From Gammaproteobacteria bacterium (lineage in GTDB: Bacteria; Pseudomonadota; Gammaproteobacteria; Pseudomonadales; Litorivicinaceae), in NCBI GenBank assembly GCA_002731015.1, contig PBZM01000004.1, positions 2,246 to 46,684 of the forward strand: 44,439 nt of DNA, given 5' to 3'. A model generated the notes under the pieces. That model did no database searches, was not told where the DNA came from, and was given only the letters and a program-made list of their open reading frames with translations. A program made the translations under genes and the position numbers. Shown here piece by piece: positions 10,629 to 43,965 of this stretch (the stretch's first letter is position 1; every line of letters starts with the position of its first letter).

Positions 10629-12260
<1,632 letters not shown>

Positions 12261-12303: not shown

Positions 12304-12417
12304 TGTCTTTAAGTCAGATGTGGTAGCGAATGTAGGATAGAGCTACAGTGAACCATTAGTAACTGTAAGGGTTACGGCACAGTTCAGTGAAACGATGCAT
12401 GGTAGGAGAGAGATTTG

Positions 12418-12909
12418 ATGCATAGGTTTTTTAGTAAAATAGACGAAACGGTTCACTTTGAGAAATATTCCGCTCATTGTGATATCCCTTGTAAAATTTA
12501 TGATCCGATTATTTCTCAAATTGCCGCGCTGTCGGTTGTTAGGCTCATTGATATAATCGCTGAAGCAGAAATGGATATGAGTAGCCATGAGGCTTTGAAC
12601 CTTGTTACGCGCTGCGTTGCCCGGAAAGAGGAAGAAGCGGAGAAGGTTAAGACAGAAATTCGAACGATCTGGGGGGATTATTTTAAAGCTCCTCAATTCG
12701 AGAAGTACCCGGGCGTTCATGGGTTAGTTCACAGCATTATGATGAAAGCCAGTGCATGTAAACAGTCGACTGATCGTAATAATGCCCTCGAGCTAGTTGA
12801 TCTGGTCAACGAGTTTGCTGCAGCGTTTTGGGACACGAAAGGGGTCTCAGTTGAGCGGAAGGTGAGCCCGTATCCACCAAGCCTACCTACGGTATATCCG
12901 GTGTTGTGA
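12418..12909 (+). CDS. sodN: Nickel superoxide dismutase precursor
   Basis: Ni-hook HCDIPCKIYDP after a short leader peptide (mature His1 codon at 12475), plus IWGDYFK. AGGAG RBS. Confidence 0.95.
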   Translation: MHRFFSKIDETVHFEKYSAHCDIPCKIYDPIISQIAALSVVRLIDIIAEAEMDMSSHEALNLVTRCVARKEEEAEKVKTEIRTIWGDYFKAPQFEKYPGVHGLVHSIMMKASACKQSTDRNNALELVDLVNEFAAAFWDTKGVSVERKVSPYPPSLPTVYPVL

Positions 12910-12919
12910 TGCAAGGCCT

Positions 12920-13312
12920 GTGATTAGGATAGTACGAGTGTGCGGCCGCAGTATGAGTCCGCTATTACATGACGGCGATTATTTACTAGTGAGAAACGTG
13001 TTGCAGTCCAGCGGTATACGGGACGGAAACATCGTAACCTTAAAACATCCTCGGTTCGGCAAAATTGTTAAAGCAGTCATTGGTGTTACGCCTGAGACCG
13101 TTAAATTGACGGGCATTTCAAGGTTGTCTACCCCAGCCGATGCTTTGGGGGATATAAAAAAGCAGAGTATTGACGGTGTGGGTGTTGCGGTCATCCCACG
13201 TAGCTCTAGGCACGGTAGCGAGAGGGCTTGGTTTAGATTTCTGAAGAATGATGACGTTCAAAATTTATTGGCACGACTTAGGTCAAAAGGACCGTCAATC
13301 ATGGTTGGTTGA
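12920..13312 (+). CDS. sodX: NiSOD maturation protease (S26-like)
   Basis: V.G.SMSPLL.DGD and HP.FG.IVK give a Ser/Lys dyad. Immediately downstream of sodN. Confidence 0.85.
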   Translation: MIRIVRVCGRSMSPLLHDGDYLLVRNVLQSSGIRDGNIVTLKHPRFGKIVKAVIGVTPETVKLTGISRLSTPADALGDIKKQSIDGVGVAVIPRSSRHGSERAWFRFLKNDDVQNLLARLRSKGPSIMVG

Positions 13313-13332
13313 GTGTCTGGGAGGTTATCTGC

Positions 13333-13926
13333 TTAGCCTAGGTTATCATCCACAAATTGCGCTTGAACATATTCCCAATTAACTAACTCGAAAAACGCTT
13401 TCACGTACGCTAACCGAGAGTTCCTGTAGTCAAGGTAATAGGCATGTTCCCAAACATCACAAGTTAGCAAAGGGACCTTTTTGTCAACCATTGGATTTCC
13501 TGTCCCTGCACTAGTCACCAGTTCTAGGGTTCCATCATTTGCCCGTACTAGCCATCCCCATCCGGAGCCGAAAATTGAGACTGAGGCCCGAATGAATTCT
13601 TCTTTTAAATATTCGAATGATCCGAATGTTTGATCTATAGCATCTGCAAATGCTCCGGAGGGCCTCATGTTTGAGTTCGGGGTCATGCAACGCCAATAAA
13701 ATGAATGATTCCACACTTCGGCAGCATGATTAAAAATACTGCCTGTTGAAGATCGGATGATTTCGTCTAACGACTTTCCCTCAAACTCACTGCTGATAAT
13801 TAAACTATTTAAATCATCAACGTGCGATTTATGATGCCTGCCGTAATGAAGTTCTATTGTTTCTTCTGAAATATTTGGTGCCAAGGCATTTTCCGCGTAA
13901 GGCAGAACTGGCAATTCAAATGCCAT
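13333..13926 (-). CDS. sodB: Fe-SOD-family protein with atypical active-site second sphere
   Basis: MAFELP.LPY, H-YG-HH, WNHSFYW, FGSGW.W and DVWEHAYYLDYRN. Metal ligands are intact, but the Tyr34 and Gln69 equivalents are His and Glu. Confidence 0.85.
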   Translation of the reverse strand: MAFELPVLPYAENALAPNISEETIELHYGRHHKSHVDDLNSLIISSEFEGKSLDEIIRSSTGSIFNHAAEVWNHSFYWRCMTPNSNMRPSGAFADAIDQTFGSFEYLKEEFIRASVSIFGSGWGWLVRANDGTLELVTSAGTGNPMVDKKVPLLTCDVWEHAYYLDYRNSRLAYVKAFFELVNWEYVQAQFVDDNLG

Positions 13927-14052
13927 GGTGACCTCCAAGATCTCTTTATGGGAAAGAGTTGGGGACTACCTAGAACAAATCAATCTTTTCGTCACTAGTG
14001 GGTTCGTTTTGTCGAAGGATTCGGTACACTCCAATCTCAAGAAGGCGAGTGT

Positions 14053-15015
14053 ATGACGCGTAAAGAACCTAAATTTGATGATAACTTGACAACTTCTGTC
14101 TCGATCGCTCTGCCAAAGGAACCAGTTAGGGATCAATCTAAATCCTCATCGCAACGGTCGGCCAGGCCCGAAAACGGAGCGAGATCGGGTTCTAATTGGT
14201 TGTTATGGTTGTTTGTATTGGCGAGTTTGTGTGTGTCCTTTGGTACAGCTTTTTTTGGGTTGGAGGAAGCTGGTCGTTATCAAGCTGCGCTAACAAAAGC
14301 AGAGGCGCAGGCCGAGGATCTTGAAGCAACAATACAAAGATTAAACAAAGCACAAACTCAGGGCATTGGCGAGCTCGCTCAGTCGGATGCGCAAATGCGG
14401 AAGATGGTGCAGTCTGTGGAATCGCGATTACAGTCTGATATCAACTCCGACTTGAGTGCTCTGGCTAAGCAGGTAGAGAACCTAAAGCAACAGGCCGCTA
14501 AGACTGATGGCAATGCATCGAAGCAAGCCCTGGCGATCGAGCGGCTATTTGATGCATTAGCGGCAAAATCAAAAACATTGAAAGCTAATCTCGATGAGTC
14601 TATCGCTCTCTTGAGCGAACAAATCAATATGGAAAGAACGCGTATCGATGCATTCGCTGGCACCAGACAGGCCATAATTTCTGTGAACGAAAAAGTATCA
14701 GATGTCAAACAACTTTCATCTGATCTTGAAGCGCAGATAAAGCAGATCATTACAGATCAAGGGGCTTATGAGTTAAGTTTTAAAGACATGCAACTTGTTG
14801 TTGAGGGTATTAATGAAAAACTCGCACAACTTGCGAGCGCGAATAATGCGCTTTTGGGACTAGAGGTATTGTCTGAGGAGATGGACCGTTTGTCACAGCA
14901 AGTATCTCAGCAACAGCAGATCATTGAATCGGTCGATGCGAGTCGACAACAACTGACACAGCGAATTATTGATCTTGATGGCAGGGTGAATCTAGCCTTG
15001 TCGTCGAAGGAGTGA
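14053..15015 (+). CDS. Membrane-anchored coiled-coil hypothetical protein
   Basis: One hydrophobic helix (WLLWLFVLASLCVSFGTAFFGL) followed by about 250 aa of heptad-rich Q/E/L/A sequence. Confidence 0.75.
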   Translation: MTRKEPKFDDNLTTSVSIALPKEPVRDQSKSSSQRSARPENGARSGSNWLLWLFVLASLCVSFGTAFFGLEEAGRYQAALTKAEAQAEDLEATIQRLNKAQTQGIGELAQSDAQMRKMVQSVESRLQSDINSDLSALAKQVENLKQQAAKTDGNASKQALAIERLFDALAAKSKTLKANLDESIALLSEQINMERTRIDAFAGTRQAIISVNEKVSDVKQLSSDLEAQIKQIITDQGAYELSFKDMQLVVEGINEKLAQLASANNALLGLEVLSEEMDRLSQQVSQQQQIIESVDASRQQLTQRIIDLDGRVNLALSSKE

Positions 15016-15095: not shown

Positions 15096-15424
15096 TTGAT
15101 AAATCGACAGACTGCTACGATCATAGATGCCCTAAATTCGCTCGAGCTCGGCCTTAGGGAATTGGGCTTATGGTCAGACAAGCGGCCCGATGCCGAATCA
15201 CTGTCGAGCACGTTGCCCTTTTGCTACGACACACTGGAAATTGAGCAGTGGTTACAGTTTATTTTCTTGGGGCGAATGCGAGAGCTACTCGAACAGGACG
15301 ATGAACTGCCGGTGAATTGCTCTATTTATCCATATATCGAGATGTTGGCTGGTGTGGGGAAACAAATCGATCCCCGGCTCGCTGAGCTAGTGAGGCAGGT
15401 TGACGAGAAAATGACGTGCAATAA

Positions 15425-15446
<22 letters not shown>
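15096..15446 (+). CDS. yqcC: YqcC family protein
   Basis: LGLW...P....L.S..PFC.DTL..EQWLQFIF..RM signature. Confidence 0.85.
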
Positions 15447-15501
<55 letters not shown>

Positions 15502-21632: not shown

Positions 21633-22088
21633 TCACCACCAGTACCGGTTCCAGTTTTCAGGGTTCGCCCAAAACTTTGGGTTATTCCAAACGCGGACAT
21701 GATTGTAGCTGGCGAGGGAGTAGTGAAAACTGGACAATGAAGATGTTTTTTCTTGGCACTTCTCACCGCATTTAAATGCCAGAGCGTAAAGTGCCTCTGG
21801 GGCCAGCTTATGACTGGCGAAACATAGGATATCAGCGATAAGTAGGTTGCGTAGCTGTCCCGCGACCAATAGGTCTTTTTCCGTTATCAAAGGCTGAGCG
21901 ACTAGGGCTGCCTCTGGCATTTCATGACTCGAGCAAATCTCAGCGGGATTAAGGACAGCTACCTCGTTGGCAGCATGAGCTTTATAGTCACCAACCACAG
22001 ACGGGGAACTTGTGCCAATGACCCACAGCCGCTTTGGTTGAACGGCCTCAAGCCAGGGTGCAATGATCGAGTCTGGAGAGAGCGTCAA
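21633..22088 (-). CDS. Conserved hypothetical protein (DUF6231-like)
   Basis: Aromatic C-terminus YSLASYN....WNNPKFWANPENW.RYWW resembles my recollection of this family. Overlaps the yaaA stop. Confidence 0.65.
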   Translation of the reverse strand: MTLSPDSIIAPWLEAVQPKRLWVIGTSSPSVVGDYKAHAANEVAVLNPAEICSSHEMPEAALVAQPLITEKDLLVAGQLRNLLIADILCFASHKLAPEALYALAFKCGEKCQEKTSSLSSFHYSLASYNHVRVWNNPKFWANPENWNRYWW

Positions 22089-22855
22089 CGCGCCTCCGGA
22101 TCACGGATGAAGCACGGCGAATCTGGGTTTGAAAATGCTGGGGCAAACGTATAGCCGTCATAGTCAAAACTATAAAGATCATCAACCGACTGAGCATCTG
22201 TTTCAACAATGAATCGCGCCATTAAACCGCGGGCCCGTTTGGCGTAAAAACTTATAATCTTGTAGTCCCCATTCTTCAGGTCTTTAAAGACAGGTGAGAT
22301 CACTGGAGCCTCTATCGATTTCAGGTCTACCGCTGCGGAATACTCGTTACTAGCCAGATTGACAAGGGGACGCCCAATAAGAAGATCGTTTAATGCGCTG
22401 GTCACATTTGCCTTCCAAAAATCGGGAAGTGATTGAATGGTTTTGCCTTTCAACTTAGTGCCCATCTCAAGTCGATAGGGACGCAACGCATCAAAAGGCC
22501 TCAACAGCCCATAGAGACCCGATAATATGCGCACGCTGTCTGCGAGTCTGGCGAGCGCCCCAGCGTCGAGTGTTTGCACGTCAAGGCCTCGGTAAACGTC
22601 GCCGTTGAAAGCGAAGATCGCTGGTAGTAACCCATCAACCTCATGATTCGGTGTCCATTCCTCGAAACGCGCGGCGTTCAGAGCCGACAGCTTGTCCGAT
22701 AACTTCATCACACCGGCAAGCTCTGATGGACTGAACTCTCGCATCAATCCTGCAAGTTTCGTTGCTTGGTCGAGGAACTGTGGTGTCGTCGTACCTGAAT
22801 AATCGACACTCAGATTGGTATTCAGTGATTTGGCTGGCGATAAAATTGCTAACAT
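22085..22855 (-). CDS. yaaA: Peroxide stress protein YaaA (UPF0246)
   Basis: ILSPAKSL, F.GDVY.GL, ILSGLYGLLRP.D...PYRLEMG, NLASNEY and ISFYAKRARG. Confidence 0.96.
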   Translation of the reverse strand: MLAILSPAKSLNTNLSVDYSGTTTPQFLDQATKLAGLMREFSPSELAGVMKLSDKLSALNAARFEEWTPNHEVDGLLPAIFAFNGDVYRGLDVQTLDAGALARLADSVRILSGLYGLLRPFDALRPYRLEMGTKLKGKTIQSLPDFWKANVTSALNDLLIGRPLVNLASNEYSAAVDLKSIEAPVISPVFKDLKNGDYKIISFYAKRARGLMARFIVETDAQSVDDLYSFDYDGYTFAPAFSNPDSPCFIRDPEAR

Positions 22856-31626: not shown

Positions 31627-33015
31627 ATGGTGACAGAAGAAGATCTACGCAGTGATATCAAATTCTACTTCGATGGCCAAGTAAGAATACTGGACAACGT
31701 CCGCGCGACGGATATGGTTATGCCCTGGCTCCGATCCGAAGCAATGCAGACCGGCACTAAAGAGGGCTGTAATGAGGGTGACTGCGGTGCCTGTACCTGC
31801 CTGGTCGGCTCTATATCCGAGTCCGGTGATCTTCGGTTTAGCGTAATTAATACATGTATTTATCCGCTCGCATATCTCGATGGGGCGTGGCTGATCTCTG
31901 TAGAGACTCTCAGCAGGTCAGGGTCATTATGTTCAGCCCAAAGCGGAATGCTGCCCCTTAACGCGTCACAGTGTGGATTTTGTACGCCTGGTTTTGTGAT
32001 GGCGATGGTGTACGCTCAGATAACAAAAAAAGACCAAACACCAGAACAGGCGTTGGCTGGGAACTTATGCCGATGCACCGGCTATGGCGGTCTGATTGAG
32101 GCAACTCGACTTGCCCAGAGTCAGCCTCTCGATAGAGCCTTTGTCGATGAGATCGAGGGCGCTACGGCGGTCCTAAGACAGTTGTCTCGAGGCGGATTTT
32201 CCATTGCCAATCACAACTCGAGGATTGACGCACCAAAAACGCTCGAACATCTGCTGGATCTTAGAAAAAATTTTCCATCCGCTACACTTGTTTCTGGGGC
32301 CACCGATTTTGGGCTGTGGATAACGAAGCGCTTAGATAGGCCTTCCCACATCATCCTCACAAAATTTTGTGAGCAGCTCCTTTTGAGAGAAATACGGTCC
32401 GACATTATAGAAATCGGTGCCGCGGTAACGATTGAAGAACTTGAAAATAGTTTGGTATCCGAATATCCCGAGCTTCAGGAATGGTTTCAAAGATTCGGGG
32501 GGCCACAGGTTCGCTGTAGCGGAACGCTCGGCGGCAATATCGCCAACGGTTCGCCGATAGGTGACTCGGCCCCGGTTCTGATTGCTCTTGGCGCCTCATT
32601 GACGATACATTCGTGCCGCGGCCATCGAGTTATCCCGATTGAAAATTTCTTCATTGAGTATGGAAAGCAAGACCTGCTTCGTGACGAGGTGTTGGTCTCC
32701 GTTCTAATTCCCAGACGAGCACGCATCAGGCGTCTTGCGGTTGAAAAAATCAGCAAGAGATACGATCAGGACATCAGCATCGTTCTAGCAGCGATGGCTG
32801 AGATTTCCGGTGATAAGCCCAGCTATCGGTTCGCTTTTGGAGGAATGGCGGGCACACCAAAACTCGCCGAGAAAACAATGGAGTCTCTCAATCCCGATGA
32901 TCTAACCTCTGACTTCAGTCCTCTGTCAGATCACAGAGCAGAGGCCTGGTATCGCCTCGCTGTATCGAAAAATTTAGTGCGTGACTTTTTGGATGGGGAT
33001 GCTTCTCGTGAATGA
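31627..33015 (+). CDS. xdhA: Xanthine dehydrogenase small subunit (2Fe-2S/FAD)
   Basis: GTKEGCNEGDCGAC, QCGFCTPGF, GNLCRCTGY, GGNIANGSPIGD and KISKR.DQDIS. Confidence 0.95.
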   Translation: MVTEEDLRSDIKFYFDGQVRILDNVRATDMVMPWLRSEAMQTGTKEGCNEGDCGACTCLVGSISESGDLRFSVINTCIYPLAYLDGAWLISVETLSRSGSLCSAQSGMLPLNASQCGFCTPGFVMAMVYAQITKKDQTPEQALAGNLCRCTGYGGLIEATRLAQSQPLDRAFVDEIEGATAVLRQLSRGGFSIANHNSRIDAPKTLEHLLDLRKNFPSATLVSGATDFGLWITKRLDRPSHIILTKFCEQLLLREIRSDIIEIGAAVTIEELENSLVSEYPELQEWFQRFGGPQVRCSGTLGGNIANGSPIGDSAPVLIALGASLTIHSCRGHRVIPIENFFIEYGKQDLLRDEVLVSVLIPRRARIRRLAVEKISKRYDQDISIVLAAMAEISGDKPSYRFAFGGMAGTPKLAEKTMESLNPDDLTSDFSPLSDHRAEAWYRLAVSKNLVRDFLDGDASRE

Positions 33016-35329
33016 TCTAACCAAGCCGTGGGGCACCTCGGTTATTGGGGCGCCAGAATCTCACGACAGTAACCTGGAGCACTTAACCGGCGAAGCGGTA
33101 TACTGCGACGACATACCAGAGCCAAGTGGTTGTCTGCACGGTGCTCTAGTTCTGGGCCCGGCAACACCTAGTCGGGATTTAAGCATCAACGCTCCCGATT
33201 CAGTGCAACTCGAGGGCCTATGCTTGGGCCATCACCGGTTTCTGAGCGCCGCAGATATTCCTGGTGAGAATAATGCAGGGCCTGTTGTACACGATGAACC
33301 GCTTCTGCCCTCTAATGAGACAAGTTACCCGCACCAGCCAGTGGGGATCGTTCTGTGTTCGGATCGAGACGAGGCGCGTCGGATTGCTCGAGAGTATCAG
33401 GTCAGTGGACGGCCGTTGGAACCGATAGTTTCTACCATCGCCGAAGCGGCAGGGGCAGGGCAGATCCTCCACGAACCGCTGATTCTAGAAAATCATTTTT
33501 CTGAATTATCGTTCGTTGAGTGCGACCATATAACTGAGTGTGGCATGTCGGTTGGTGGGCAGGATCATGTCTATCTTGAGGGTCAAGTTGCGCTGGCGAT
33601 GCCCTCATCGGACGGTATCCATGTCGTAAGTTCAACCCAACACCCGACAGAGGTTCAGGATCTGATTGCCAACCTTCTTGGCGTCAGCGCGGCGAATGTG
33701 ACCGTCGAGGTCCGACGGATGGGCGGGGCATTCGGTGGGAAAGAGACTCAGGCAGCGCATTTCGCAATATTAGCCGCATTAGGAGCTCATGTAACAGGTA
33801 GACCTGTCAAGGTTCGGCTGGACCGAGATGACGACATGCGTGTGACAGGAAAGAGGCATGATTTCCTAGTGAACTATAGGGTCGGGCACGACGCCGAGGG
33901 CCTTATTACGGCAGCGGATATTGAACTGAACTCTCGCTGTGGTTGGAGTTCTGATCTGAGTCGATCTGTAAACGATCGGGCCCTATTTCATGCTGAGAAC
34001 GCGTACTTTATTCCATCTGTAAAGATCGTCTCGAACCGATTTAAGACCAATACTGTGTCGAACACTGCGTTTAGAGGTTTCGGCGGTCCACAGGGAATGA
34101 TCGGTATCGAGCGCTGTATGGACGTAATCGCTAGGGTTACAGGCAAAGATCCGCTTGATATTCGGTTGCTCAACCTATACGGGACATCTGGTACAGAAAC
34201 ACCGTACGGTATGTCCATTGATGAGGGTGTTCTTCCAAAAATAATTAGGAATCTTGCGGAGACGTCGGACTATCGTAATCGAAGGGAAGAGATTAATTTG
34301 ACGAACGATCAATCAAAACGTATCAAGAGAGGGATCGCGCTCACTCCTGTAAAGTTTGGTATCTCGTTCACCGCTAGCTTTTTGAATCAGGCCGGCGCAT
34401 TACTCAACGTCTACAAAGATGGTTCGGTCTCCCTGAATCATGGTGGAACCGAAATGGGTCAGGGGCTGCATACAAAAATCAGACAAGTTGTCGCAAATCA
34501 TCTGGGCATAGACCAGGAAACGATTCAGGTCACGGCTACCAGGACGGATAAGGTTCCCAACACCTCACCGACAGCGGCCTCCAGCGGTTCTGATCTAAAT
34601 GGGATGGCCGCCTTGACGGCTGCCCGAAAGATCAGGCAAAGATTAGAGATTTTTCTCCGAGAGACCTACCAAACCTCCGCTGAAGTTCGATTCTCTCGTG
34701 GGTTGGTTAGGGTTGGAGGTAACGAAATTACCTTCAGTGAGTTAGCTAGGAGGGCGTGGTTCGCGCGTGTCCCGTTAAGTGCGACCGGGCACTACGCGAC
34801 GCCGGATATTGGTTGGGATCCGAAGACAGGTAAGGGTCGTCCATTCTATTATTTTGCCAACGGAGCTGCCGTAACAGAGGTGGCGATAGATACCCTGACC
34901 GGCGTTCCTAAGGTCTTGCGAGTGGATATACTCCACGACGTTGGGAAGAGCCTCAATCCAGCCATTGACTTAGGTCAGATAGAGGGAGGTTTTGTTCAGG
35001 GGATGGGCTGGTTGACGTCAGAGGAATTGGTCTATTCGAGCGCCGGCGAATTGTTGACGCACGGCCTCAGTACGTACAAGATTCCGACCGCCACTGATCG
35101 GCCGAAGATGCATATTCATTTGTGGGATGGTGCGAATCCTCGGGAGATGCTTTATCAGTCAAAAGCGGTCGGGGAACCACCCTTTATGCTTGCAATCAGC
35201 GTGCATTCGGCGATCTGTCACGCGATTAGCAGCGTTAGCTCAGACAGCAAGTTTTGGCCACAGCTCAACGCGCCGGCAACTCCTCAAGAAATCCTAAGGT
35301 GTGTCCAGTGCGCGGCGAATGGATCCTAA
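33008..35329 (+). CDS. xdhB: Xanthine dehydrogenase molybdopterin subunit
   Basis: SSTQHPTEVQ, RRMGGAFGGKETQ, AFRGFGGPQG, GGTEMGQGL and catalytic KAVGEPP. Start probably GTG 33008. Confidence 0.96.
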   Translation: MNDLTKPWGTSVIGAPESHDSNLEHLTGEAVYCDDIPEPSGCLHGALVLGPATPSRDLSINAPDSVQLEGLCLGHHRFLSAADIPGENNAGPVVHDEPLLPSNETSYPHQPVGIVLCSDRDEARRIAREYQVSGRPLEPIVSTIAEAAGAGQILHEPLILENHFSELSFVECDHITECGMSVGGQDHVYLEGQVALAMPSSDGIHVVSSTQHPTEVQDLIANLLGVSAANVTVEVRRMGGAFGGKETQAAHFAILAALGAHVTGRPVKVRLDRDDDMRVTGKRHDFLVNYRVGHDAEGLITAADIELNSRCGWSSDLSRSVNDRALFHAENAYFIPSVKIVSNRFKTNTVSNTAFRGFGGPQGMIGIERCMDVIARVTGKDPLDIRLLNLYGTSGTETPYGMSIDEGVLPKIIRNLAETSDYRNRREEINLTNDQSKRIKRGIALTPVKFGISFTASFLNQAGALLNVYKDGSVSLNHGGTEMGQGLHTKIRQVVANHLGIDQETIQVTATRTDKVPNTSPTAASSGSDLNGMAALTAARKIRQRLEIFLRETYQTSAEVRFSRGLVRVGGNEITFSELARRAWFARVPLSATGHYATPDIGWDPKTGKGRPFYYFANGAAVTEVAIDTLTGVPKVLRVDILHDVGKSLNPAIDLGQIEGGFVQGMGWLTSEELVYSSAGELLTHGLSTYKIPTATDRPKMHIHLWDGANPREMLYQSKAVGEPPFMLAISVHSAICHAISSVSSDSKFWPQLNAPATPQEILRCVQCAANGS

Positions 35330-36024
35330 TCGAAATTGTCAGGGTGTTAGGAAGTACCCCACGAGGTGAGGGTACCAAGATGTGGGTGAATTCTGACTCT
35401 CAGGTTGGTTCGATTGGTGGCGGTCAGCTGGAATTTTTGGCGACCAAGAGGGCCCGGGAAATGATAGCCGAGGGATTAACCGAGGCCGTGGCCAGCCTAC
35501 CTCTGGGCCCCGTCTTGTCTCAGTGTTGTGGTGGGATTGTAGACTTGGCTTTCAACGCTGCTGAGCGACCCGAAACCCCGCCGGATCAAGGGTTTCCGAT
35601 GGTTCTGTACGGGCTGGGGCACGTGGGGTCTGCGGTGTCTAGGATTATGGAAACCGTTCCTTATCCTCTGGTGACATTCGACGATAGGGAAGATTTGGGG
35701 GCTTCTCACATAGATGCCTCAGCCGTGATTGATTCGATTCCTGAAAAGGCATACCACTTGGTTATGACCTACAGTCACGAGTTGGATTTTGAGATATGCA
35801 GGCGGCTTGTTGAGCGGAATGCGGAGGGCTCTATCAGCTTGATCGGTTCAAAATCAAAAAAAGCTAGATTTGCGAGTCGACTGCGAAAGCTCGGGCTGAA
35901 CTCGGAGAGGATTAATTGTCCAGTAGGTGTTGTTGGGATACGTGGCAAGGAGCCCGCAGTTATTGCGGTCTCAGCGGTGGCCGAGTTTCTTCTTTGGCAA
36001 AGTGCAGAGGCTTTGTCCGAATGA
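35308..36024 (+). CDS. xdhC: Xanthine dehydrogenase accessory protein
   Basis: GSTPR, GSIGGGQLE, LGP.L.QCCGG, VMTYSHELD, LIGSKSK and KEPAVIA. Start probably GTG 35308. Confidence 0.92.
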   Translation: MRGEWILIEIVRVLGSTPRGEGTKMWVNSDSQVGSIGGGQLEFLATKRAREMIAEGLTEAVASLPLGPVLSQCCGGIVDLAFNAAERPETPPDQGFPMVLYGLGHVGSAVSRIMETVPYPLVTFDDREDLGASHIDASAVIDSIPEKAYHLVMTYSHELDFEICRRLVERNAEGSISLIGSKSKKARFASRLRKLGLNSERINCPVGVVGIRGKEPAVIAVSAVAEFLLWQSAEALSE

Positions 36025-36070
36025 GAATGGATCGCGACCTTTTCAAGGTCCTCCTTCGGTTTGGTGGTTT

Positions 36071-37405
36071 ATGACGAATGATTCTGATGCGGCAGAACTA
36101 TGCGAGCCGTTTGTCGTTCAAGGCCCACTATTTACGCTTCTCAATGATAGGAGTGTAGGCACGTATACTTACCTTGATAACGGTTCTATGGTGGTGGGTG
36201 ATCAAGGTAAGATTCTGTATGTTGGTCCGAGCGTCCCAGCGGAGTATTCACATTATCAGGTTAAGAAAACTCGGCATCTTATTTTCCCTGGGTTCATTGA
36301 TGCTCATGTTCATTATCCGCAGCTACCGGTGATTGCGTCCTACGGGGCGTCGTTGCTTGAGTGGCTCGATAAATATACGTTTCCTGAGGAGGCTAAGTAC
36401 AGCCAAAGACCCTACGCTGAGAAACGCGCTCGCCAATTTTTGGAGCTGATGCTGAAGAGAGGGGTCACCTCAGCAGCCGTATTTTCAACGATTCACGAAG
36501 AAGCTTTCGACGCGCTGCTGGGTGCGGCCTCGTATTCAGGCTTTAACCTTGTCTCGGGAGTCACGGCTATGAACCGGGGTGCTCCAGATAATGTACTAGT
36601 TGACGTCGGTTTGTTCAAAGAGGTTAGCGCAAAGGCTATAGAATCTGGACGGTGTGTCGAGAGATTTCGTTACGCAATTACGCCCCGCTTTGCTATCTCC
36701 TGCACAGAGGGAATGCTGGAATATTGCGGCCGACTACTGGAGTCCAATCCAAGTTTACTGATGCAGACGCATATCAACGAGACAAAAGAAGAGGTCTTAG
36801 CCACATCAAATTTATTCCCCCATGCTACTGACTATCTGGATGTGTATGACGCATTTGGATTGCTAAGTGATCGATCATTATTTGCGCACGGGATCTACAC
36901 GACCGAATCTGAATACGAGAGGTGGGCAGCGTCTGGTGCTTCTGTGATTCATTGCCCCACGAGCAATACGTTCTTGGGGTCTGGTTTGTTCGATGCCTCT
37001 GGATATATATCAAGAGACATTAATGTAGGGATGGGAAGCGATGTTGGAGGTGGCGTCTCGTTAAATCCGTTCGTGACGATGTCGGAGGCTTACAAGGTAG
37101 CCAAGTTGGGTGGCCGAGTATTGGATCCCTTTCAGTTGGTTTATTGGCATACTTTGGGAGGTGCCAAGGCTATCAACCAAGCAGGTTTTATTGGTTCTTT
37201 AGAGCCGGGTAAATGGGCTGATTTTTGTCTGATTGATATCACTAGTGACGATTTAGGCTTCGAGGCGTGGGAAAGATCTAATAGTGTTCAAGAGAAATTA
37301 TTCGGGTTGACGTTTTTGTCGCATGACTCGATGAACAAAGTGGTTGAGACCTATGCTGGCGGTATCTCACGCTGGAAAGATGCAACTTGTCAAGGACCTG
37401 AATAA
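36071..37405 (+). CDS. guaD: Guanine deaminase
   Basis: PGFIDAHVHYPQ, LLEWLDKYTFP.E, AITPRFA, QTHINE, HCPTSN.FLGSG and GSDVGGG. Start probably ATG 36071. Confidence 0.94.
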   Translation: MTNDSDAAELCEPFVVQGPLFTLLNDRSVGTYTYLDNGSMVVGDQGKILYVGPSVPAEYSHYQVKKTRHLIFPGFIDAHVHYPQLPVIASYGASLLEWLDKYTFPEEAKYSQRPYAEKRARQFLELMLKRGVTSAAVFSTIHEEAFDALLGAASYSGFNLVSGVTAMNRGAPDNVLVDVGLFKEVSAKAIESGRCVERFRYAITPRFAISCTEGMLEYCGRLLESNPSLLMQTHINETKEEVLATSNLFPHATDYLDVYDAFGLLSDRSLFAHGIYTTESEYERWAASGASVIHCPTSNTFLGSGLFDASGYISRDINVGMGSDVGGGVSLNPFVTMSEAYKVAKLGGRVLDPFQLVYWHTLGGAKAINQAGFIGSLEPGKWADFCLIDITSDDLGFEAWERSNSVQEKLFGLTFLSHDSMNKVVETYAGGISRWKDATCQGPE

Positions 37406-38757: not shown

Positions 38758-39336
38758 TCATCGATCACCATCAGCACCGGGGACGACCGGGATCATGTCC
38801 TCTTCAAGGTTAAGTGTAATGATCTTAGACGCTGCCAGACTGTAGCCGCTATCGGCTATCTCGAAGCTCTGAGTGCCGACAGACAGTCGGCCCCAGACGA
38901 TGATGGGCTGGTAGAGATCTCGTAATGGTGTCGGTGTAGTGGTCGTGTCTACAAGCAGTGTCTGATTCAGCGGTGGTGGTGGGACATGAATACACTGTCC
39001 CGCCTCCGGGACAAGCAAGAATTGTAAGACATTCTCCTCCCGCACCTCTATCGGGACCATGAAGCCCGCGATCTCGACAGATTTACCCTCAAGAAGAGGA
39101 TTGATCACCCTACCTGCTTCATCGAGTTGACTCTGGAAGGTGGGATTAAACAATAGCTCGAAGTAAAAATCTTTCGGCACAAAATCGTAGGCGCCGGGTG
39201 GAATCAAGCTGTCCCAAGCGGTTTCCCAGCGAACAAAGTCTTCCTCAGTAGCCTCATAGCCGGAGGCAACGGCGCAGACCACGGAGATTGCGTTGAAAAA
39301 AATGAGTGTGGCTAAAAGACCTACTATTCGTATCAA
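38758..39336 (-). CDS. DUF3299 family protein (ZrgD-like)
   Basis: I.GFMVP, FLLVP..GQCIHVPPPP.NQ; last gene of the zrg-type operon. Confidence 0.88.
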   Translation of the reverse strand: MIRIVGLLATLIFFNAISVVCAVASGYEATEEDFVRWETAWDSLIPPGAYDFVPKDFYFELLFNPTFQSQLDEAGRVINPLLEGKSVEIAGFMVPIEVREENVLQFLLVPEAGQCIHVPPPPLNQTLLVDTTTTPTPLRDLYQPIIVWGRLSVGTQSFEIADSGYSLAASKIITLNLEEDMIPVVPGADGDR

Positions 39337-40580
39337 TTAGCGAATCCCCTGTGCAATGAGCGTCTGTATACCATACCCGCGGGTATGAGGCTCGCTCCTA
39401 GCCCCGCTAGAACTATGATCATTAGCGTCACCAGCTCGTTGCCGGCTAACCACGTGAGTTGCACGCGAATACCTGCCCACTCGCCCAATAAGTCTGCGGC
39501 GCCGAGCGTCAGGATCCGGACTAAAATGACAGCAGACAGGATCGCAGTAAGACTAATCACAAATGTTTCTAGGAGGACGAGGCAGGCCAGCTTGGGCGGC
39601 GAGGCCCCGAGCGCGCGGAGTATTGTCATCTCACGCGTCCGGCCGTCTAGTCCCGTTATCATCATCGTTACCATTCCTATTATGCTGATGCCGATAATCA
39701 GCCAGTTGACGAGCTTGAACACCGAATCTACTGTGCCGACCATTGACCACAGTTGGGCAAGCGCAACACCGGGGATGACGGCACTGATGGCCTCCTCAGG
39801 GTAGTCGTTGATCTTCCGGATAAATTTAAATATGCCCAGCTTAGATTTCAGTCCGAGATAGACCGCGGTTACTGTTTCGGGATATAAACGATCTCTGGGT
39901 ATTGCGTCTATGTCGAGGCCCTTTAGGCTTATGGCCTTACTACCATTCCTCCATCCGAGATGAATCAATTCGTAGCCTTCTAGGCTTACGAAAACCGCTC
40001 GATCCGTTGGAGTACCCGTGGGTGCAAGAATCCCGGCGACATTAAACGAAAAGTCATCATGTAACTCACCGAGCATCTCAGAACCATGTGTCACAAAAAT
40101 TGTTGTCCCCAGGGTGTAACCTAGTGCCTCTGCTACACCACTGCCTAGGACAACCTCGTCAAGATCGCTGAATGCATTCCCCTGTGCAAACACCAGTGGT
40201 TTATCGCCGGCAAATTTGATGCGATCGAAGTATGCTTTAGTCGTCGAGATGACCCTGAAGCCACGATGGCTGTCTCCAAGCGCTACTGGTACTGACCACT
40301 CGACCATCGGATCGCTGGCGATGTCTGATACCGTTGCTGTTGTGATGTTGTTTGTTGGCTTCCCCAGATGGAACACGGTGTAGAGGACCAATTCCAGTCC
40401 GCTTCCTCTTGGTCCAAGTACTAGATCTACCCCGCTCAGGCTTTGGTTAAATCCGCTCTTTGTACCCTGTTGGATTCTGTCGAAGCTGAGAAGAAGTGCC
40501 ATAGAGGCTGAGAGAGCAACGACGACGAGACCAACCGGGATCAGCCTCGAGCGCATCGATGCTAGTGCTAGCCGAAACAT
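39333..40580 (-). CDS. FtsX/MacB-type ABC permease (ZrgC-like)
   Basis: SGVDLVLGPRGS..ELVLY.VFH.G, PVALGDSHRGFRV and R.REM.ILRALGA. ATG 40580 overlaps the upstream TAA. Confidence 0.88.
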   Translation of the reverse strand: MFRLALASMRSRLIPVGLVVVALSASMALLLSFDRIQQGTKSGFNQSLSGVDLVLGPRGSGLELVLYTVFHLGKPTNNITTATVSDIASDPMVEWSVPVALGDSHRGFRVISTTKAYFDRIKFAGDKPLVFAQGNAFSDLDEVVLGSGVAEALGYTLGTTIFVTHGSEMLGELHDDFSFNVAGILAPTGTPTDRAVFVSLEGYELIHLGWRNGSKAISLKGLDIDAIPRDRLYPETVTAVYLGLKSKLGIFKFIRKINDYPEEAISAVIPGVALAQLWSMVGTVDSVFKLVNWLIIGISIIGMVTMMITGLDGRTREMTILRALGASPPKLACLVLLETFVISLTAILSAVILVRILTLGAADLLGEWAGIRVQLTWLAGNELVTLMIIVLAGLGASLIPAGMVYRRSLHRGFAN

Positions 40581-41236
40581 TATTCTCGCCCGATCCTGAC
40601 CACCCGGTCGAACCATGGGATGATCTCGGGGTTATGACTGACAACGATAATAGCCTGAGCCGAGGCCTCGACTGAGCTGTTCAGTTCTGACATAAATTCC
40701 TTAGTTGCAGCAGGGTCCAGTGCTGAGGTCGGCTCGTCTGCAAGAATAAGCTCAGGGCTTCCGAGCAGCGCCCTGATGACTGCGACCCGCTGTTGTTGTC
40801 CTACACTGAGCTTGTTTGGTCTCTTCTCAAGAATATCGGGCATTAGGCCCAGCTGATGTCCTAGTGAGTAAGTTTGGTAGGTGACGTCATCTATCTTGGC
40901 CCGACGTGTTTTTGAGAACTCCAGTCCGAGGACCGCATTCTCAAAACCAGTTAAATAGGGAATGAGATTCAGCGATTGAAAAATGACTCCAATGTGATCC
41001 GCGCGAATTTTGTCGAGTCGGAGTGGGCTCAGATCATTATAAGAATGGCCGAGAAGCCGAATCGATCCAGATTGGATGGGCAGCACGCCGGAGAGCAAGT
41101 TTAAGAAAGTTGATTTCCCGCTACCAGATGCCCCCACTAGTGCAATTTTTTCGCCTGCAGCTACTTTGAGGTCTGGGAACTGGATTTTTTCACCAGACCC
41201 GTAGTCGTAACTCAGAGCGTTGGTCTCGACAATCAA
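40580..41236 (-). CDS. ABC ATP-binding protein (ZrgB-like)
   Basis: GASGSGKST, LSVGQQQRVA and LADEPTSALD. Confidence 0.9.
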   Translation of the reverse strand: MIVETNALSYDYGSGEKIQFPDLKVAAGEKIALVGASGSGKSTFLNLLSGVLPIQSGSIRLLGHSYNDLSPLRLDKIRADHIGVIFQSLNLIPYLTGFENAVLGLEFSKTRRAKIDDVTYQTYSLGHQLGLMPDILEKRPNKLSVGQQQRVAVIRALLGSPELILADEPTSALDPAATKEFMSELNSSVEASAQAIIVVSHNPEIIPWFDRVVRIGRE

Positions 41237-41829
41237 ATTGAGGTTAATACTCTTTCTCGTGTTAGCGAGTCTGATAATGACTGATCCCCGACCAAACCTT
41301 CAACCTGAATCATTGCAAGATCGTCAAATCGCTCGAAGGCCGGCCCGAAATCGAACGACGTAACCTTATCCGGATGCCCACAGGTTAGGTCAGCCTCAAT
41401 GACCACGTCCTTATGCCCCGAGTCTCCGCTAGTTTCTCTGTCTAAAACGACGTCCCTCACTGATTGGTCTATCTTTTTTTGAACACATTCAGCAGAGTCA
41501 GGTAGGCGCACGAATTCGAATATGCTGGCGATTTTTTTTAGATCTTCGGCTAGGTGGGCGTGATCCTTGTCACCCTTGTGTTCGTTGTGTTTGTGCTCAT
41601 CGTGCTTGTGTTCGTCGTGCTTGTGTTCGTCGTGCTTGTGTTCGTCGTGCTTGTGTTCGTCGTGCTCTCGAAGTTGTGCGATTGGGAACTCGTAGACAAC
41701 TTGTAGCGTTGCCCCTTCTAAAACTATCTTTACGTGGTTAAGACCGTGGACGTGTGCCCCAGCGTGCCGTTTTTCTGCGTGCACAAAGCCAGAGATTAAG
41801 ATAAGAGCCAAGGTCAAAGCGATCCGCAT
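41233..41829 (-). CDS. DUF2796/ZrgA-like periplasmic zinc-binding protein
   Basis: Signal peptide, AHVHG motif, His-rich insert, Cys pair and H.D motif; GGAG RBS. Confidence 0.85.
   Translation of the reverse strand: MRIALTLALILISGFVHAEKRHAGAHVHGLNHVKIVLEGATLQVVYEFPIAQLREHDEHKHDEHKHDEHKHDEHKHDEHKHNEHKGDKDHAHLAEDLKKIASIFEFVRLPDSAECVQKKIDQSVRDVVLDRETSGDSGHKDVVIEADLTCGHPDKVTSFDFGPAFERFDDLAMIQVEGLVGDQSLSDSLTRERVLTSI
41575..41664 (-). repeat. 15-bp coding tandem repeat (HDEHK)x5 + HNEHK
   Basis: Four perfect CTTGTGTTCGTCGTG units (41605-41664) and two diverged units. Confidence 0.95.
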
Positions 41830-42246: not shown

Positions 42247-43965
42247 TCATGCAACCAGCCAAGCTGGAGGCTCGTGCGCCGCGAAACCCGAAATCGCTGC
42301 GTCCACACAGTCCCTTAACGACCCCAGTCTAGAGTGTCTGTTGCTTAAACCGTAGGCGTAGTGGGCGTACTTACCGGAGTTGGTCATTAGACCTTTCGCC
42401 TCTGGCGGGAATATAGGCTCAACAATTGAGCACCAGCAGAGGTCGGGCATTATCTGTACTCCCGCATCTTCCAATTTTTTGGCAATTCCTTCAGCCTCTG
42501 CACGTTGAATCGTGTGGCGAGCAGCAGTAATTTTCATTTGAGTCTGGACGTGGCGTCGTCTGTCAGCAAAAAGAGCGCTTATCTTTCTTATTTCTTCGAT
42601 CGATGCGTGTGGGCTTCCAACAGCGACTAAATCTATTTTTTCGAGTCCACGGTTAAGCTCGAACCAAGCATCCTTTAGGTTTTCAGGATTGATCAGGTAT
42701 ATCGGAAGTCGTTCAGCATTCTGGGTAGATGATTCAGGTGTTTGGCCGAGAATATGTAGCATTGGTGCACCGGAAGTTGTTCCGAAAGCAGCGCATAGAG
42801 ATTTTAAATCATCGATTGTTGGTGACAGACTTTCTAGCCCGGTAATCAAGGGGACTGAATCAGGCGACAATTTACCAGCGAGCCAACCAATTAGCGGCCA
42901 CAAGACCTCATCATCAGATGACCACTTCTGAGGAATCGTTACCTCGATTTTTACTCGAGCTTTTCTGCCAAGCGTTGAATACATTCCAACGGACGGTGCC
43001 CGTCCCGTTATCGCTATAAATAGATCGAGATAGTCAGGATGTTTTTGGGTTCGCGCACCGAGAACGGTATTCGCGAAAATCACTGCGTTTGATTCCGACC
43101 AACCTATGTTTTCCCCGAGTTGAGGTTTGTCAGCCAGAAGATATGGTGCACAGGTAAATGTCGGTTTGACCCCCATCTCAATGTATGCATCGGCCAAACG
43201 GCTTGCGCGTTTACCGAAGTCCTCATCGAGCCCCGAGTTCTGCCAATTCTCACGATCGACCGAGATGGCATTAATTGTTGTTGGTATGATCACTTTAGCG
43301 CCGAGCTCAGCCATTCTCTCAGCAAAAATGAGATTAGCGTCGTGTGCCAAGATACAGCCATCGATGTGACCTCTATCCACATCGATCAAACTCGATGCGT
43401 TTTCGACGGCTGCCATCACGCAAATCGTTTCCATCGCAGCTTTTGCGACATCACCATGGTCGCCCTTCAAATAGGCGTGATCGTTTTCAGATAAGACGAG
43501 TAGATCTTTTGATATTAGGTCTAGGCCGATAGTTTGGTTAGCTAGAACGAGCTGATGATCGTGAAGTTCAACTAACTTTTCTCTCGCGACAGCATAATAG
43601 TTTTGCCGAGAAAGACAGATTATAGGAACCGGGACCCCAAATATCCGGTCGCATACGATTGACCCCAAAGTCAATACTTGTTCTAGCTCGTTAAAAATAA
43701 TCATCGCAGGAGCACGCTCATTGAGGGCCAACTGCAGTAAAACACCGCTCCCACTGCATGAGCCTCTGGATGTTGGCATTAATAAACATTTGCCGGATAC
43801 AGAATCTCCGTGGTTGGGGTGGTGTGCGTCGATAATTGCCCCAGTGTGTGGATCGACGCCTCCCCAGAAACTCAATCCTTCTTCACAGACTAGAACTTTA
43901 CCGCTGGCGGATCCTTCCACAATCAATTGATTTTTTTCGATCGAACCGTCGTGTTTATTTCTCAT
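42247..43965 (-). CDS. lhpI: Aconitase X, fused type (cis-3-hydroxy-L-proline dehydratase-like)
   Basis: N-terminal swivel domain (LSFWGGVDP.TG.IID.HHP, RGSCSGS) fused to the catalytic domain (HIDGC, PTFTCAPY, WSESNAV.FAN, GSPH.S, DLCWC, TNSGKYAHY). Confidence 0.88.
   Translation of the reverse strand: MRNKHDGSIEKNQLIVEGSASGKVLVCEEGLSFWGGVDPHTGAIIDAHHPNHGDSVSGKCLLMPTSRGSCSGSGVLLQLALNERAPAMIIFNELEQVLTLGSIVCDRIFGVPVPIICLSRQNYYAVAREKLVELHDHQLVLANQTIGLDLISKDLLVLSENDHAYLKGDHGDVAKAAMETICVMAAVENASSLIDVDRGHIDGCILAHDANLIFAERMAELGAKVIIPTTINAISVDRENWQNSGLDEDFGKRASRLADAYIEMGVKPTFTCAPYLLADKPQLGENIGWSESNAVIFANTVLGARTQKHPDYLDLFIAITGRAPSVGMYSTLGRKARVKIEVTIPQKWSSDDEVLWPLIGWLAGKLSPDSVPLITGLESLSPTIDDLKSLCAAFGTTSGAPMLHILGQTPESSTQNAERLPIYLINPENLKDAWFELNRGLEKIDLVAVGSPHASIEEIRKISALFADRRRHVQTQMKITAARHTIQRAEAEGIAKKLEDAGVQIMPDLCWCSIVEPIFPPEAKGLMTNSGKYAHYAYGLSNRHSRLGSLRDCVDAAISGFAAHEPPAWLVA

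Follow-up and report, generated by a model that had tools for sequence, protein, structure and literature searches.

The E. coli iron superoxide dismutase (FeSOD) engineered to carry glutamate in place of glutamine 69 (Q69E) is reportedly inactive and isolated as Fe(II). The Gln-to-Glu change is described as raising E0 by more than 0.66 V (PMC5901066), and the Y34H mutant of human MnSOD is listed with a k1 of 0.07 against 1.5 and a k2 below 0.02 against 1.1 (PMC9208312, Table 1). The hallmark of the SodFM2 (FeSOD) class is given as an N-terminal water-coordinating Gln; the MnSOD and cambialistic classes (SodFM1/3) are described with a C-terminal water-coordinating Gln or His and with Gly at position 69 (PMC10172142). 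A predicted-inactive FeSOD has already been published from Xanthomonas citri: XAC2677 combines Tyr35Glu with His31Cys, changes that its authors took to be confined to Xanthomonadaceae, and its Gln69 goes unmentioned in the excerpted text of that paper (PMC6322740). In S. maltophilia, growth was poorer in a triple mutant than in the sodA double mutant, a sign that SodB may have some residual role (PMC6479884). The SOD fold has also been kept outside the role of a free dismutase, in the inactive PsaSOD1 that forms a structural bridge in Chromera photosystem I (PMC12830998) and in the plastid proteins PAP4 and PAP9, which are RNA-polymerase subunits (PMC8278866). For a natural Q69E SOD we found no report in searches of the open-access literature, which gave no match for the Y34H/Q69E double mutant either.

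Here we analyze a natural gene that carries both changes, sodB*, in a window of 44,439 nucleotides (the whole stretch of DNA under study). Source labels assign its host to uncultured Gammaproteobacteria, and most of the runs in which it occurs are marine; the same sources label the sodB* clade ‘superoxide dismutase [Fe]’. The features used below are as follows.

10632..12260, plus strand: groEL, left landmark of the groEL-(sodN-sodX)-sodB locus
12415..12909, plus strand: sodN, nickel SOD (NiSOD) precursor with its HCDIPCKIYD hook intact (TIGR02753, 153.6 bits against a cut-off of 90)
12920..13312, plus strand: sodX-like S26 maturation peptidase (TIGR02754, E 3.6e-13, 49.8 bits, short of the cut-off of 63.25; PF10502)
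13333..13926, minus strand: sodB* (SodFM2, Fe-SOD fold; protein P0001, 197 aa), at the genus's ancestral sodB locus
13444..13458, minus strand: DVWEH motif with ligands Asp157 and His161 and the dimer-bridging Glu160
13501..13506, minus strand: Gly141-Thr142, outside the derived change
13705..13707, minus strand: His74, metal ligand (E. coli His73)
13717..13719, minus strand: Glu70 codon GAA (E. coli Gln69)
13822..13824, minus strand: His35 codon CAC (E. coli Tyr34)
13846..13848, minus strand: His27, metal ligand (E. coli His26)
13926-13924, minus strand: ATG start of sodB*
13932..13936, minus strand: GGAGG ribosome-binding site of sodB*, 5 nt upstream of the ATG and kept in aligned relatives
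14053..15015, plus strand: coiled-coil gene, divergent from sodB*, with no Pfam match; it serves as the right landmark of the locus

In most of the genus loci examined, sodB lies between groEL and the coiled-coil gene, and in four genomes with sodN the sodN-sodX pair sits between groEL and sodB, convergent with sodB. The neighbors of sodB* are thus those of an ordinary NiSOD cassette, a sodN and a sodX-like peptidase; the difference is that the cassette adjoins a resident sodB that was retained rather than deleted. The sodX-like gene and sodB* converge with 20 bases between their stop codons. We see no terminator-like site in these bases (window 13313-13332), and canonical relatives have a hairpin with T-runs 3' of sodB; antisense read-through between sodX and sodB* is possible. 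The upstream region of sodB* is conserved among aligned relatives along with the ribosome-binding site, and a promoter scan returned four sites against 3.4 expected by chance. RNA contigs reach well inside sodB* in one of four RNA runs and cover sodN in all four, although contigs cannot rank expression; the run X5 has one 159-base RNA piece over the 5' part of sodB*, together with pieces of other weakly covered genes, so that this piece does not demonstrate transcription, and a lack of coverage elsewhere carries no meaning. Codon usage gave no sign that sodB* has lost a high-expression bias, being indistinguishable in this respect from the canonical genes of G006 and G013.

Several further observations concern the surroundings. 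The coiled-coil protein (320 aa, with a hydrophobic stretch) is fast-evolving, and its gene is divergent from sodB across the genus. In the gap between groES and groEL, one base at window 10605 is missing in the RNA contigs of three of four runs, either a strain difference or an assembly slip. A tRNA-Met(CAT) gene at window 15425-15501 (minus strand) overlaps the 3' end of a DUF446 gene (15096-15446) by 22 bases. Farther along lie ordinary neighbors: a YaaA peroxide-stress gene (in 22085-22855), a xanthine dehydrogenase cluster (31627-37405), a ZrgA-type zinc ABC cluster (38758-41829) and a fused aconitase X (42247-43965).

The HMMER alignment of P0001 to E. coli FeSOD chains has no gaps and an offset of 1, so that His35 is the counterpart of Tyr34 and Glu70 that of Gln69 (below, residues are in E. 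coli numbering unless they are named for P0001 or its cluster). A preliminary description of the locus had read both substitutions by eye, together with a full-length ORF, a GGAGG ribosome-binding site and four retained metal ligands, and all of this was borne out, with the ORF lying on the minus strand. It had also counted Asn140Gly and Ala141Thr as part of the rewiring, which does not hold: Gly141 of P0001 (Asn140) is common to the canonical SodBs of the genus and to solved Pseudomonas FeSODs, and Thr142 is polymorphic: in P0001's own 90% cluster, of which 15 of 30 members were listed, 13 of the other 14 have Ala at this site. The near-invariance of Tyr34 that it cited is matched by our count, in which Tyr34 and Gln69 are each conserved at about 100% among 115 canonical homologs, so the change of both exceeds what chance would give. 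Both codons have been compared across independent assemblies, as contigs rather than raw reads. The independent metagenome contig L071 differs from sodB* at 3 of 594 bases, none of them in either codon, and contigs from three of four DNA runs (X1, X2 and X3, of which X1 or X2 may be the source sample) span both codons with no other letter there, while those of X4 stop short of them. Assembly error is thereby ruled out.

By fold, P0001 is an Fe/Mn-SOD (SodFM) with both PF00081 and PF02777, and by descent it belongs to SodFM2, since a tree with sites 34 and 69 masked nests it among the canonical SodBs of the family (support 0.93) and it shares their synteny. Its identity is 63-67% to the syntenic SodB orthologs of the genus and 56-58% to the FeSODs of Pseudomonas ovalis (1dt0) and E. 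coli (1isa), with TM scores of 0.94-0.95. The structure model (pLDDT 93.8; TM 0.95 to 1dt0 and 0.94 to the engineered E. coli Q69E enzyme, 2nyb) is silent on metal and activity. In common with these enzymes it keeps all four ligands (His27, His74, Asp157, His161) as well as His31, Glu160, Tyr164 and Trp123, which correspond to the network and dimer-bridge residues His30, Glu159, Tyr163 and Trp122, although 2 of the 28 cluster proteins have Cys in place of Tyr164. It differs from them in the two residues that a competent FeSOD has, Gln69 and Tyr34. Lacking the hallmark Gln of SodFM2, P0001 should not be filed as a working FeSOD; its score against NCBIfam PRK10543 is 268.8 bits, under the cut-off of 348, a comparison made for P0001 alone. 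Conserved catalytic residues have been lost from a fold retained under selection, as in a pseudoenzyme. Assignment to the MnSOD or cambialistic SodFM1/3 was rejected on position 142 (Thr or Ala) and position 70 (Glu), and a switch to a MnSOD-type second sphere on the lack of a C-terminal Gln or His in P0001.

The closest engineered counterpart, Q69E FeSOD of E. coli (2nyb, 2bkb), has Glu at the same position in near-identical local sequence; sodB*, by contrast, is natural, is fixed across species and adds Tyr34His and other substitutions. XAC2677, as described, is likewise an FeSOD homolog with a destroyed hydrogen-bond network in a genome with a second SOD, predicted to be inactive or to have an unknown function, but it carries Glu for Tyr35 and Cys for His31, whereas P0001 keeps His31 and has His35; the two are of separate origin and clade, and the partner enzyme of XAC2677 is a MnSOD rather than a NiSOD. 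We therefore rejected P0001 as a Xanthomonas-type inactive FeSOD. Among our own loci, L290 (Xanthomonadaceae, beside purK) matches the X. citri description, with Glu34, Cys30 and Gln69 kept, so that here a different substitution brings a carboxylate into that network. From PsaSOD1, which is described as having lost a ligand and as bearing an anchor extension, sodB* differs by its intact ligands and by the lack of an extension or a known complex.

Within the family, 34 of 37 genomes have a SodB match and 4 of 37 have sodN. We read 33 SodBs, leaving out the G050 copy, which is split over two contigs; 30 have Tyr34 and Gln69, and three (G000, G023 and G018; 86% and 74% identity to P0001) have His34 and Glu69. 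The sodB of G008 (L026) is interrupted by an internal stop where the sequence is garbled, around residues 50-65, which is likely an artefact of assembly or a frameshift. The three variant species, at 74-86% identity, all have sodN-sodX next door; co-occurrence with sodN-sodX and conservation of the pair in related genomes were two of the checks that the preliminary description had proposed. Counted by genome, His34/Glu69 occurs in three of the four with sodN and in none of the 29 without, an association that traces to a single origin and so admits no statistical test. The fourth sodN genome, G024, has Tyr34/Gln69 in a SodB that is nevertheless faster-evolving. In G000, G023 and G018, sodB* is the sole Fe/Mn-SOD detected, and no second Fe/Mn-SOD or Cu/Zn-SOD was found in these three or in G024, in genomes that are 56-91% complete and so leave room for missed copies. 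A Cu/Zn-SOD is present at G006:C29:5606-5983, in a close relative without NiSOD. All 28 of the 28 cluster proteins have Glu70, all 27 of the 27 that extend over position 35 have His35, and the ligands, His31, Phe119, Trp123, Glu160 and Arg171 are invariant wherever covered, with the proviso that protein clusters cannot reveal broken copies, which makes this a partial test of retention. The carrier genomes are only 1.2-2.1 Mb in size.

We quantified selection on 193 codons from 11 taxa with a codon model of our own (F3x4 with branch classes; no PAML benchmark). Omega is 0.025 on canonical sodB branches and 0.203 among the three variant genes (the crown), which answers the preliminary description's proposed check for dN/dS below 1; omega of 1 is rejected for the crown (p 4e-19), equality with the background is rejected as well (p 4e-18), and the species topology gives similar values. 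Drift private to one genome is thus excluded by dN/dS together with fixation in three species and the cluster proteins. Neighboring genes in the same three species have omega between 0.068 and 0.219 (sodN 0.074, sbcB 0.163, fabG 0.174, the coiled-coil gene 0.219), and since these are similar, a value of 0.2 is no sign of special function. The ratio of foreground to background omega is 8 for sodB and about 1-5 for the neighbors. In short, sodB* has given up the strong constraint of a canonical sodB for that of an ordinary conserved gene, which is still not neutrality.

The crown is about 0.7 synonymous changes per codon deep. The stem on which both changes arose is saturated at synonymous sites (t 5-8) against all canonical copies, which makes dN/dS there uninformative; for 10 of 10 neighbors the synonymous change on this stem is near zero. 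In 13 of 14 flanking gene trees, G006, which has a canonical SodB, nests among the variant carriers (in one at support 0.16); the remaining tree groups the carriers and has no support value. Synonymous identity between G018 and G006 is 0.44 for sodB and 0.60-0.90 for flanking genes. From this discordance we infer that the sodN-sodX-sodB block is probably old and has moved by recombination. Either the variant cassette was imported into the carriers, or G006 and G041 lost sodN and regained a canonical sodB; on the latter course, the variant would be unable to serve alone. In the protein tree the closest partners of the variant are the SodB of G024 and five metagenomic relatives (support 86; 0.68 in another tree), one of which, P0038, has Glu69 with Tyr34. 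The G024 gene (L044) and P0036, P0040, P0041, P0026 and P0038 share Thr117Ile, Arg170Lys, Pro171Ala and Trp178Phe with Tyr34 kept, and this sister group is possibly an intermediate stage.

Is the change peculiar to this clade? We scanned 185,579 genomes for an FeSOD helix whose position 69 is Glu and obtained 33 stretches, a floor given the strict pattern, which detects Glu only. Four are chance matches outside SOD, two (L168, L169) come from the sodB* clade, and 27 are SOD-fold genes from outside it, among them one partial gene and one with a stop; these 27 come from Xanthomonas, Pseudoxanthomonas, other Lysobacterales, Halomonas and a related genus, Arenicella, alphaproteobacteria and others. 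At least two Fe/Mn-SOD matches occur in 25 of these 27 genomes; we read an intact-looking second Fe/Mn-SOD in 23 (18 of MnSOD type, 5 canonical FeSODs), and among the other four, two partners were not fetched and two genomes had none that we saw. We found sodN in 0 of the 27, by the same search that gave it in four family genomes, and so what Glu69 goes with is redundancy of any kind rather than nickel. The earlier proposal that the gene may have been freed by NiSOD is accordingly supported in its redundancy part, and its nickel-specific part finds no support outside the family. The Glu69 genes occupy unrelated neighborhoods (purK, ugd-tamA, groEL). Two of them, L159:2620-4476 (Arenicella) and L165:1557-3426 (a gammaproteobacterium), adjoin a DUF502 gene and a ferritin-like gene, a possible iron-storage link. 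At L156:169-1502 we find tandem divergent SOD-fold genes, one Tyr34/Gln69 with an odd helix and one Cys34/Glu69, with a canonical FeSOD elsewhere in the genome.

With sites 34 and 69 masked, trees place the marine variant in its own family (0.93) and the Halomonas variants with Halomonas SodBs (0.88), and in Xanthomonadaceae three Glu69 groups stand apart among Gln69 sequences. Judged from these trees, Glu69 with loss of Tyr34 arose separately in the marine clade, Halomonas, Xanthomonadaceae and others, the exact number of origins being soft with FastTree and long branches. Among 68 Xanthomonadaceae best matches, a less biased sample than the scan, 60 are canonical, four are Leu34/Glu69 (one from the query's own genome), and His34/Gln69, Glu34/Gln69, Tyr34/Leu69 and Cys34/Thr69 occur once each. 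For Halomonas we drew 81 genomes and read 50 loci (the 30 best matches and 20 picked mostly from the low-scoring tail), and these form a series from canonical sequences through replacement of Tyr34 by His or Cys with Gln69 by Glu, Lys or Arg to ligand-less, near-full-length frames. Three or four ligands are lost in 5 of 20 loci fetched with such frames kept; their persistence means that metal binding is not required for retention there. Six copies at the Halomonas ugd-sodB-tamA locus (L271, L274, L276, L277, L278 and L279) lack three or four ligands and keep the core tryptophans, and are candidate metal-free pseudo-SODs.

The best 150 cluster representatives, found with a profile that itself had Glu at column 69, contain 152 SOD domains. 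In these the non-Gln residues at 69 are Glu (12) and Gly, Lys, Ser and Thr (1 each), and Glu69 is present in 8 of 14 domains without Tyr34 against 4 of 138 with it. A region-limited protein search found only seven candidates. In 30 Glu69 proteins dereplicated at 70%, Trp122, Trp124, Trp183 and Pro16 are kept in all, the ligands in 25-27 (His73 being partly fixed by the search pattern), Glu159 in 28, His30 in 19, Phe118 in 14 and Tyr34 in 6; the 24 without Tyr34 have Cys (9), His (7), Leu (5), Phe (2) or Gln (1). With position 34 this varied, His34 looks like one of several exits from Tyr34 rather than a designed partner, though His34 with Glu69 does recur in Halomonas, Pseudoxanthomonas and L165. 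Glu69 itself is thus the convergent change. The clustered, multi-part rewiring once proposed for this gene finds no support, with Gly140 ancestral, Thr141 polymorphic and His34 one of several replacements; the case is broader and less specifically rewired than the preliminary description held.

What, then, does sodB* do? By analogy with the engineered enzymes, its dismutase activity is very probably largely gone. We tentatively favor, without giving it even chances, a dismutase-dead, folded pseudoenzyme that may be kept for holding redox-locked Fe(II). In this proposal Glu69 would reverse the hydrogen bond to the metal-bound water and make the potential of the Fe(III)/Fe(II) couple over 0.66 V higher, as in engineered mutants; bound iron would stay Fe(II) and the cycle would not be completed. 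Loss of Tyr34 would, again from such mutants, remove the proton relay, superoxide removal would have passed to NiSOD, and the retained dimer would buffer a little Fe(II) in a redox-quiet form; on this proposal, that is how the metal site comes to outlast the catalytic residues. The retention of ligands in 25-27 of 30 Glu69 proteins, against Tyr34 in 6, and the ferritin-like gene beside L159 and L165 speak for such a role. On the other side, if NiSOD is favored because it spares iron, a dead enzyme that holds iron would cost it. Within the clade, moreover, the variant has changed at 14 of 74 family-conserved sites, so that four given sites escape with a probability of about 0.43 and retention of the ligands there is not significant by itself; some Halomonas descendants have lost the ligands yet keep near-full-length frames; and a paper on the equivalent MnSOD mutant is titled as stabilizing the apo-protein and disfavoring metal binding. 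The RNA contigs that reach well inside sodB* in one of four runs, against four of four for sodN, belong on this side too, within the limits of contigs given above.

The conservation order of fold over ligands over catalysis is also what misfolding avoidance would give, and it fits a slow decay in which catalysis was released after NiSOD arrived, only selection against misfolded product of a gene that is still transcribed remains, and Glu is a near-isosteric, one-base change that a buried Gln69 tolerates. The eightfold rise in omega, the graded Halomonas series and the prevalence of one-base steps at position 34 (Cys 9, His 7 and Phe 2 of 24) point the same way. We still hold decay to be rather unlikely, since the gene has stayed intact in genomes of 1.2-2.1 Mb, both along the saturated stem and throughout a crown about 0.7 synonymous changes per codon deep, with its ribosome-binding site and upstream region conserved and with His30, Glu159, Arg170 and Phe118 in every covering cluster protein. 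The persistence of ligand-less Halomonas copies fits a metal-independent moonlighting role, the dimer serving as scaffold or binding partner, with Glu69 stabilizing the apo form and also sparing iron. PsaSOD1, PAP4 and PAP9 are precedents, and for S. maltophilia SodB a marginal part in superoxide stress is reported, with other functions possible (PMC6479884), a comparison drawn from that description. Against it stand the lack of a partner gene, extension or fusion at sodB* and the unrelated neighborhoods of the Glu69 genes, the ligands kept by most Glu69 proteins, and the 29 family genomes in which the canonical enzyme alone suffices; we consider it unlikely.

A working, perhaps weak SOD seems improbable to us. 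Here His34 would neutralize the Glu69 carboxylate and restore the potential, and the enzyme would stand in at times of nickel shortage. In its favor, fixed changes affect no more than two catalytic residues, His30, Glu159, Arg170 and mostly Tyr163 are kept more than in other Glu69 families, and the His34/Glu69 pair recurs outside the clade. But either single change is crippling in engineered enzymes (for Q69E FeSOD, reportedly so), Glu69 also pairs with Cys, Leu and Phe at position 34, so that His is not required, and in close relatives that lack sodN the sodB is canonical and its ancestry discordant. Most improbable of all is a nickel buffer or chaperone for the adjacent SodN, or an enzyme for a new substrate. 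It would account for sodN-sodX adjoining sodB* in all three carriers and for the tree that joins the variant to G024, the only other sodN carrier, yet sodB* lies on the strand opposite to sodN, which rules out a single operon, G024 has sodN with Tyr34/Gln69, no sodN was found in the 27 other Glu69 genomes, and HupE/UreJ-type genes are present in carriers and a non-carrier alike.

To return to Fe(II) holding, its extension to all Glu69 SodBs as an unrecognized, repeatedly evolved class of redox-locked Fe(II)-binding proteins is doubtful. If true, another SOD (Ni, Mn or a second Fe enzyme) would free the iron enzyme, selection would convert it by one base into the state engineered as Q69E, and the SOD fold would provide a Fenton-quiet ferrous buffer or sensor. 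The Glu69 genes offer natural, selected versions of the classic redox-tuning mutant, in which Glu69 with varied residues at 34 becomes measurable on real proteins. Labels such as ‘superoxide dismutase [Fe]’ can hide a missing catalytic network, which affects genome-based counts of antioxidant capacity and iron demand. For this marine heterotroph, the locus records one fate of a resident FeSOD on the arrival of NiSOD: it was apparently disarmed and kept, not deleted.
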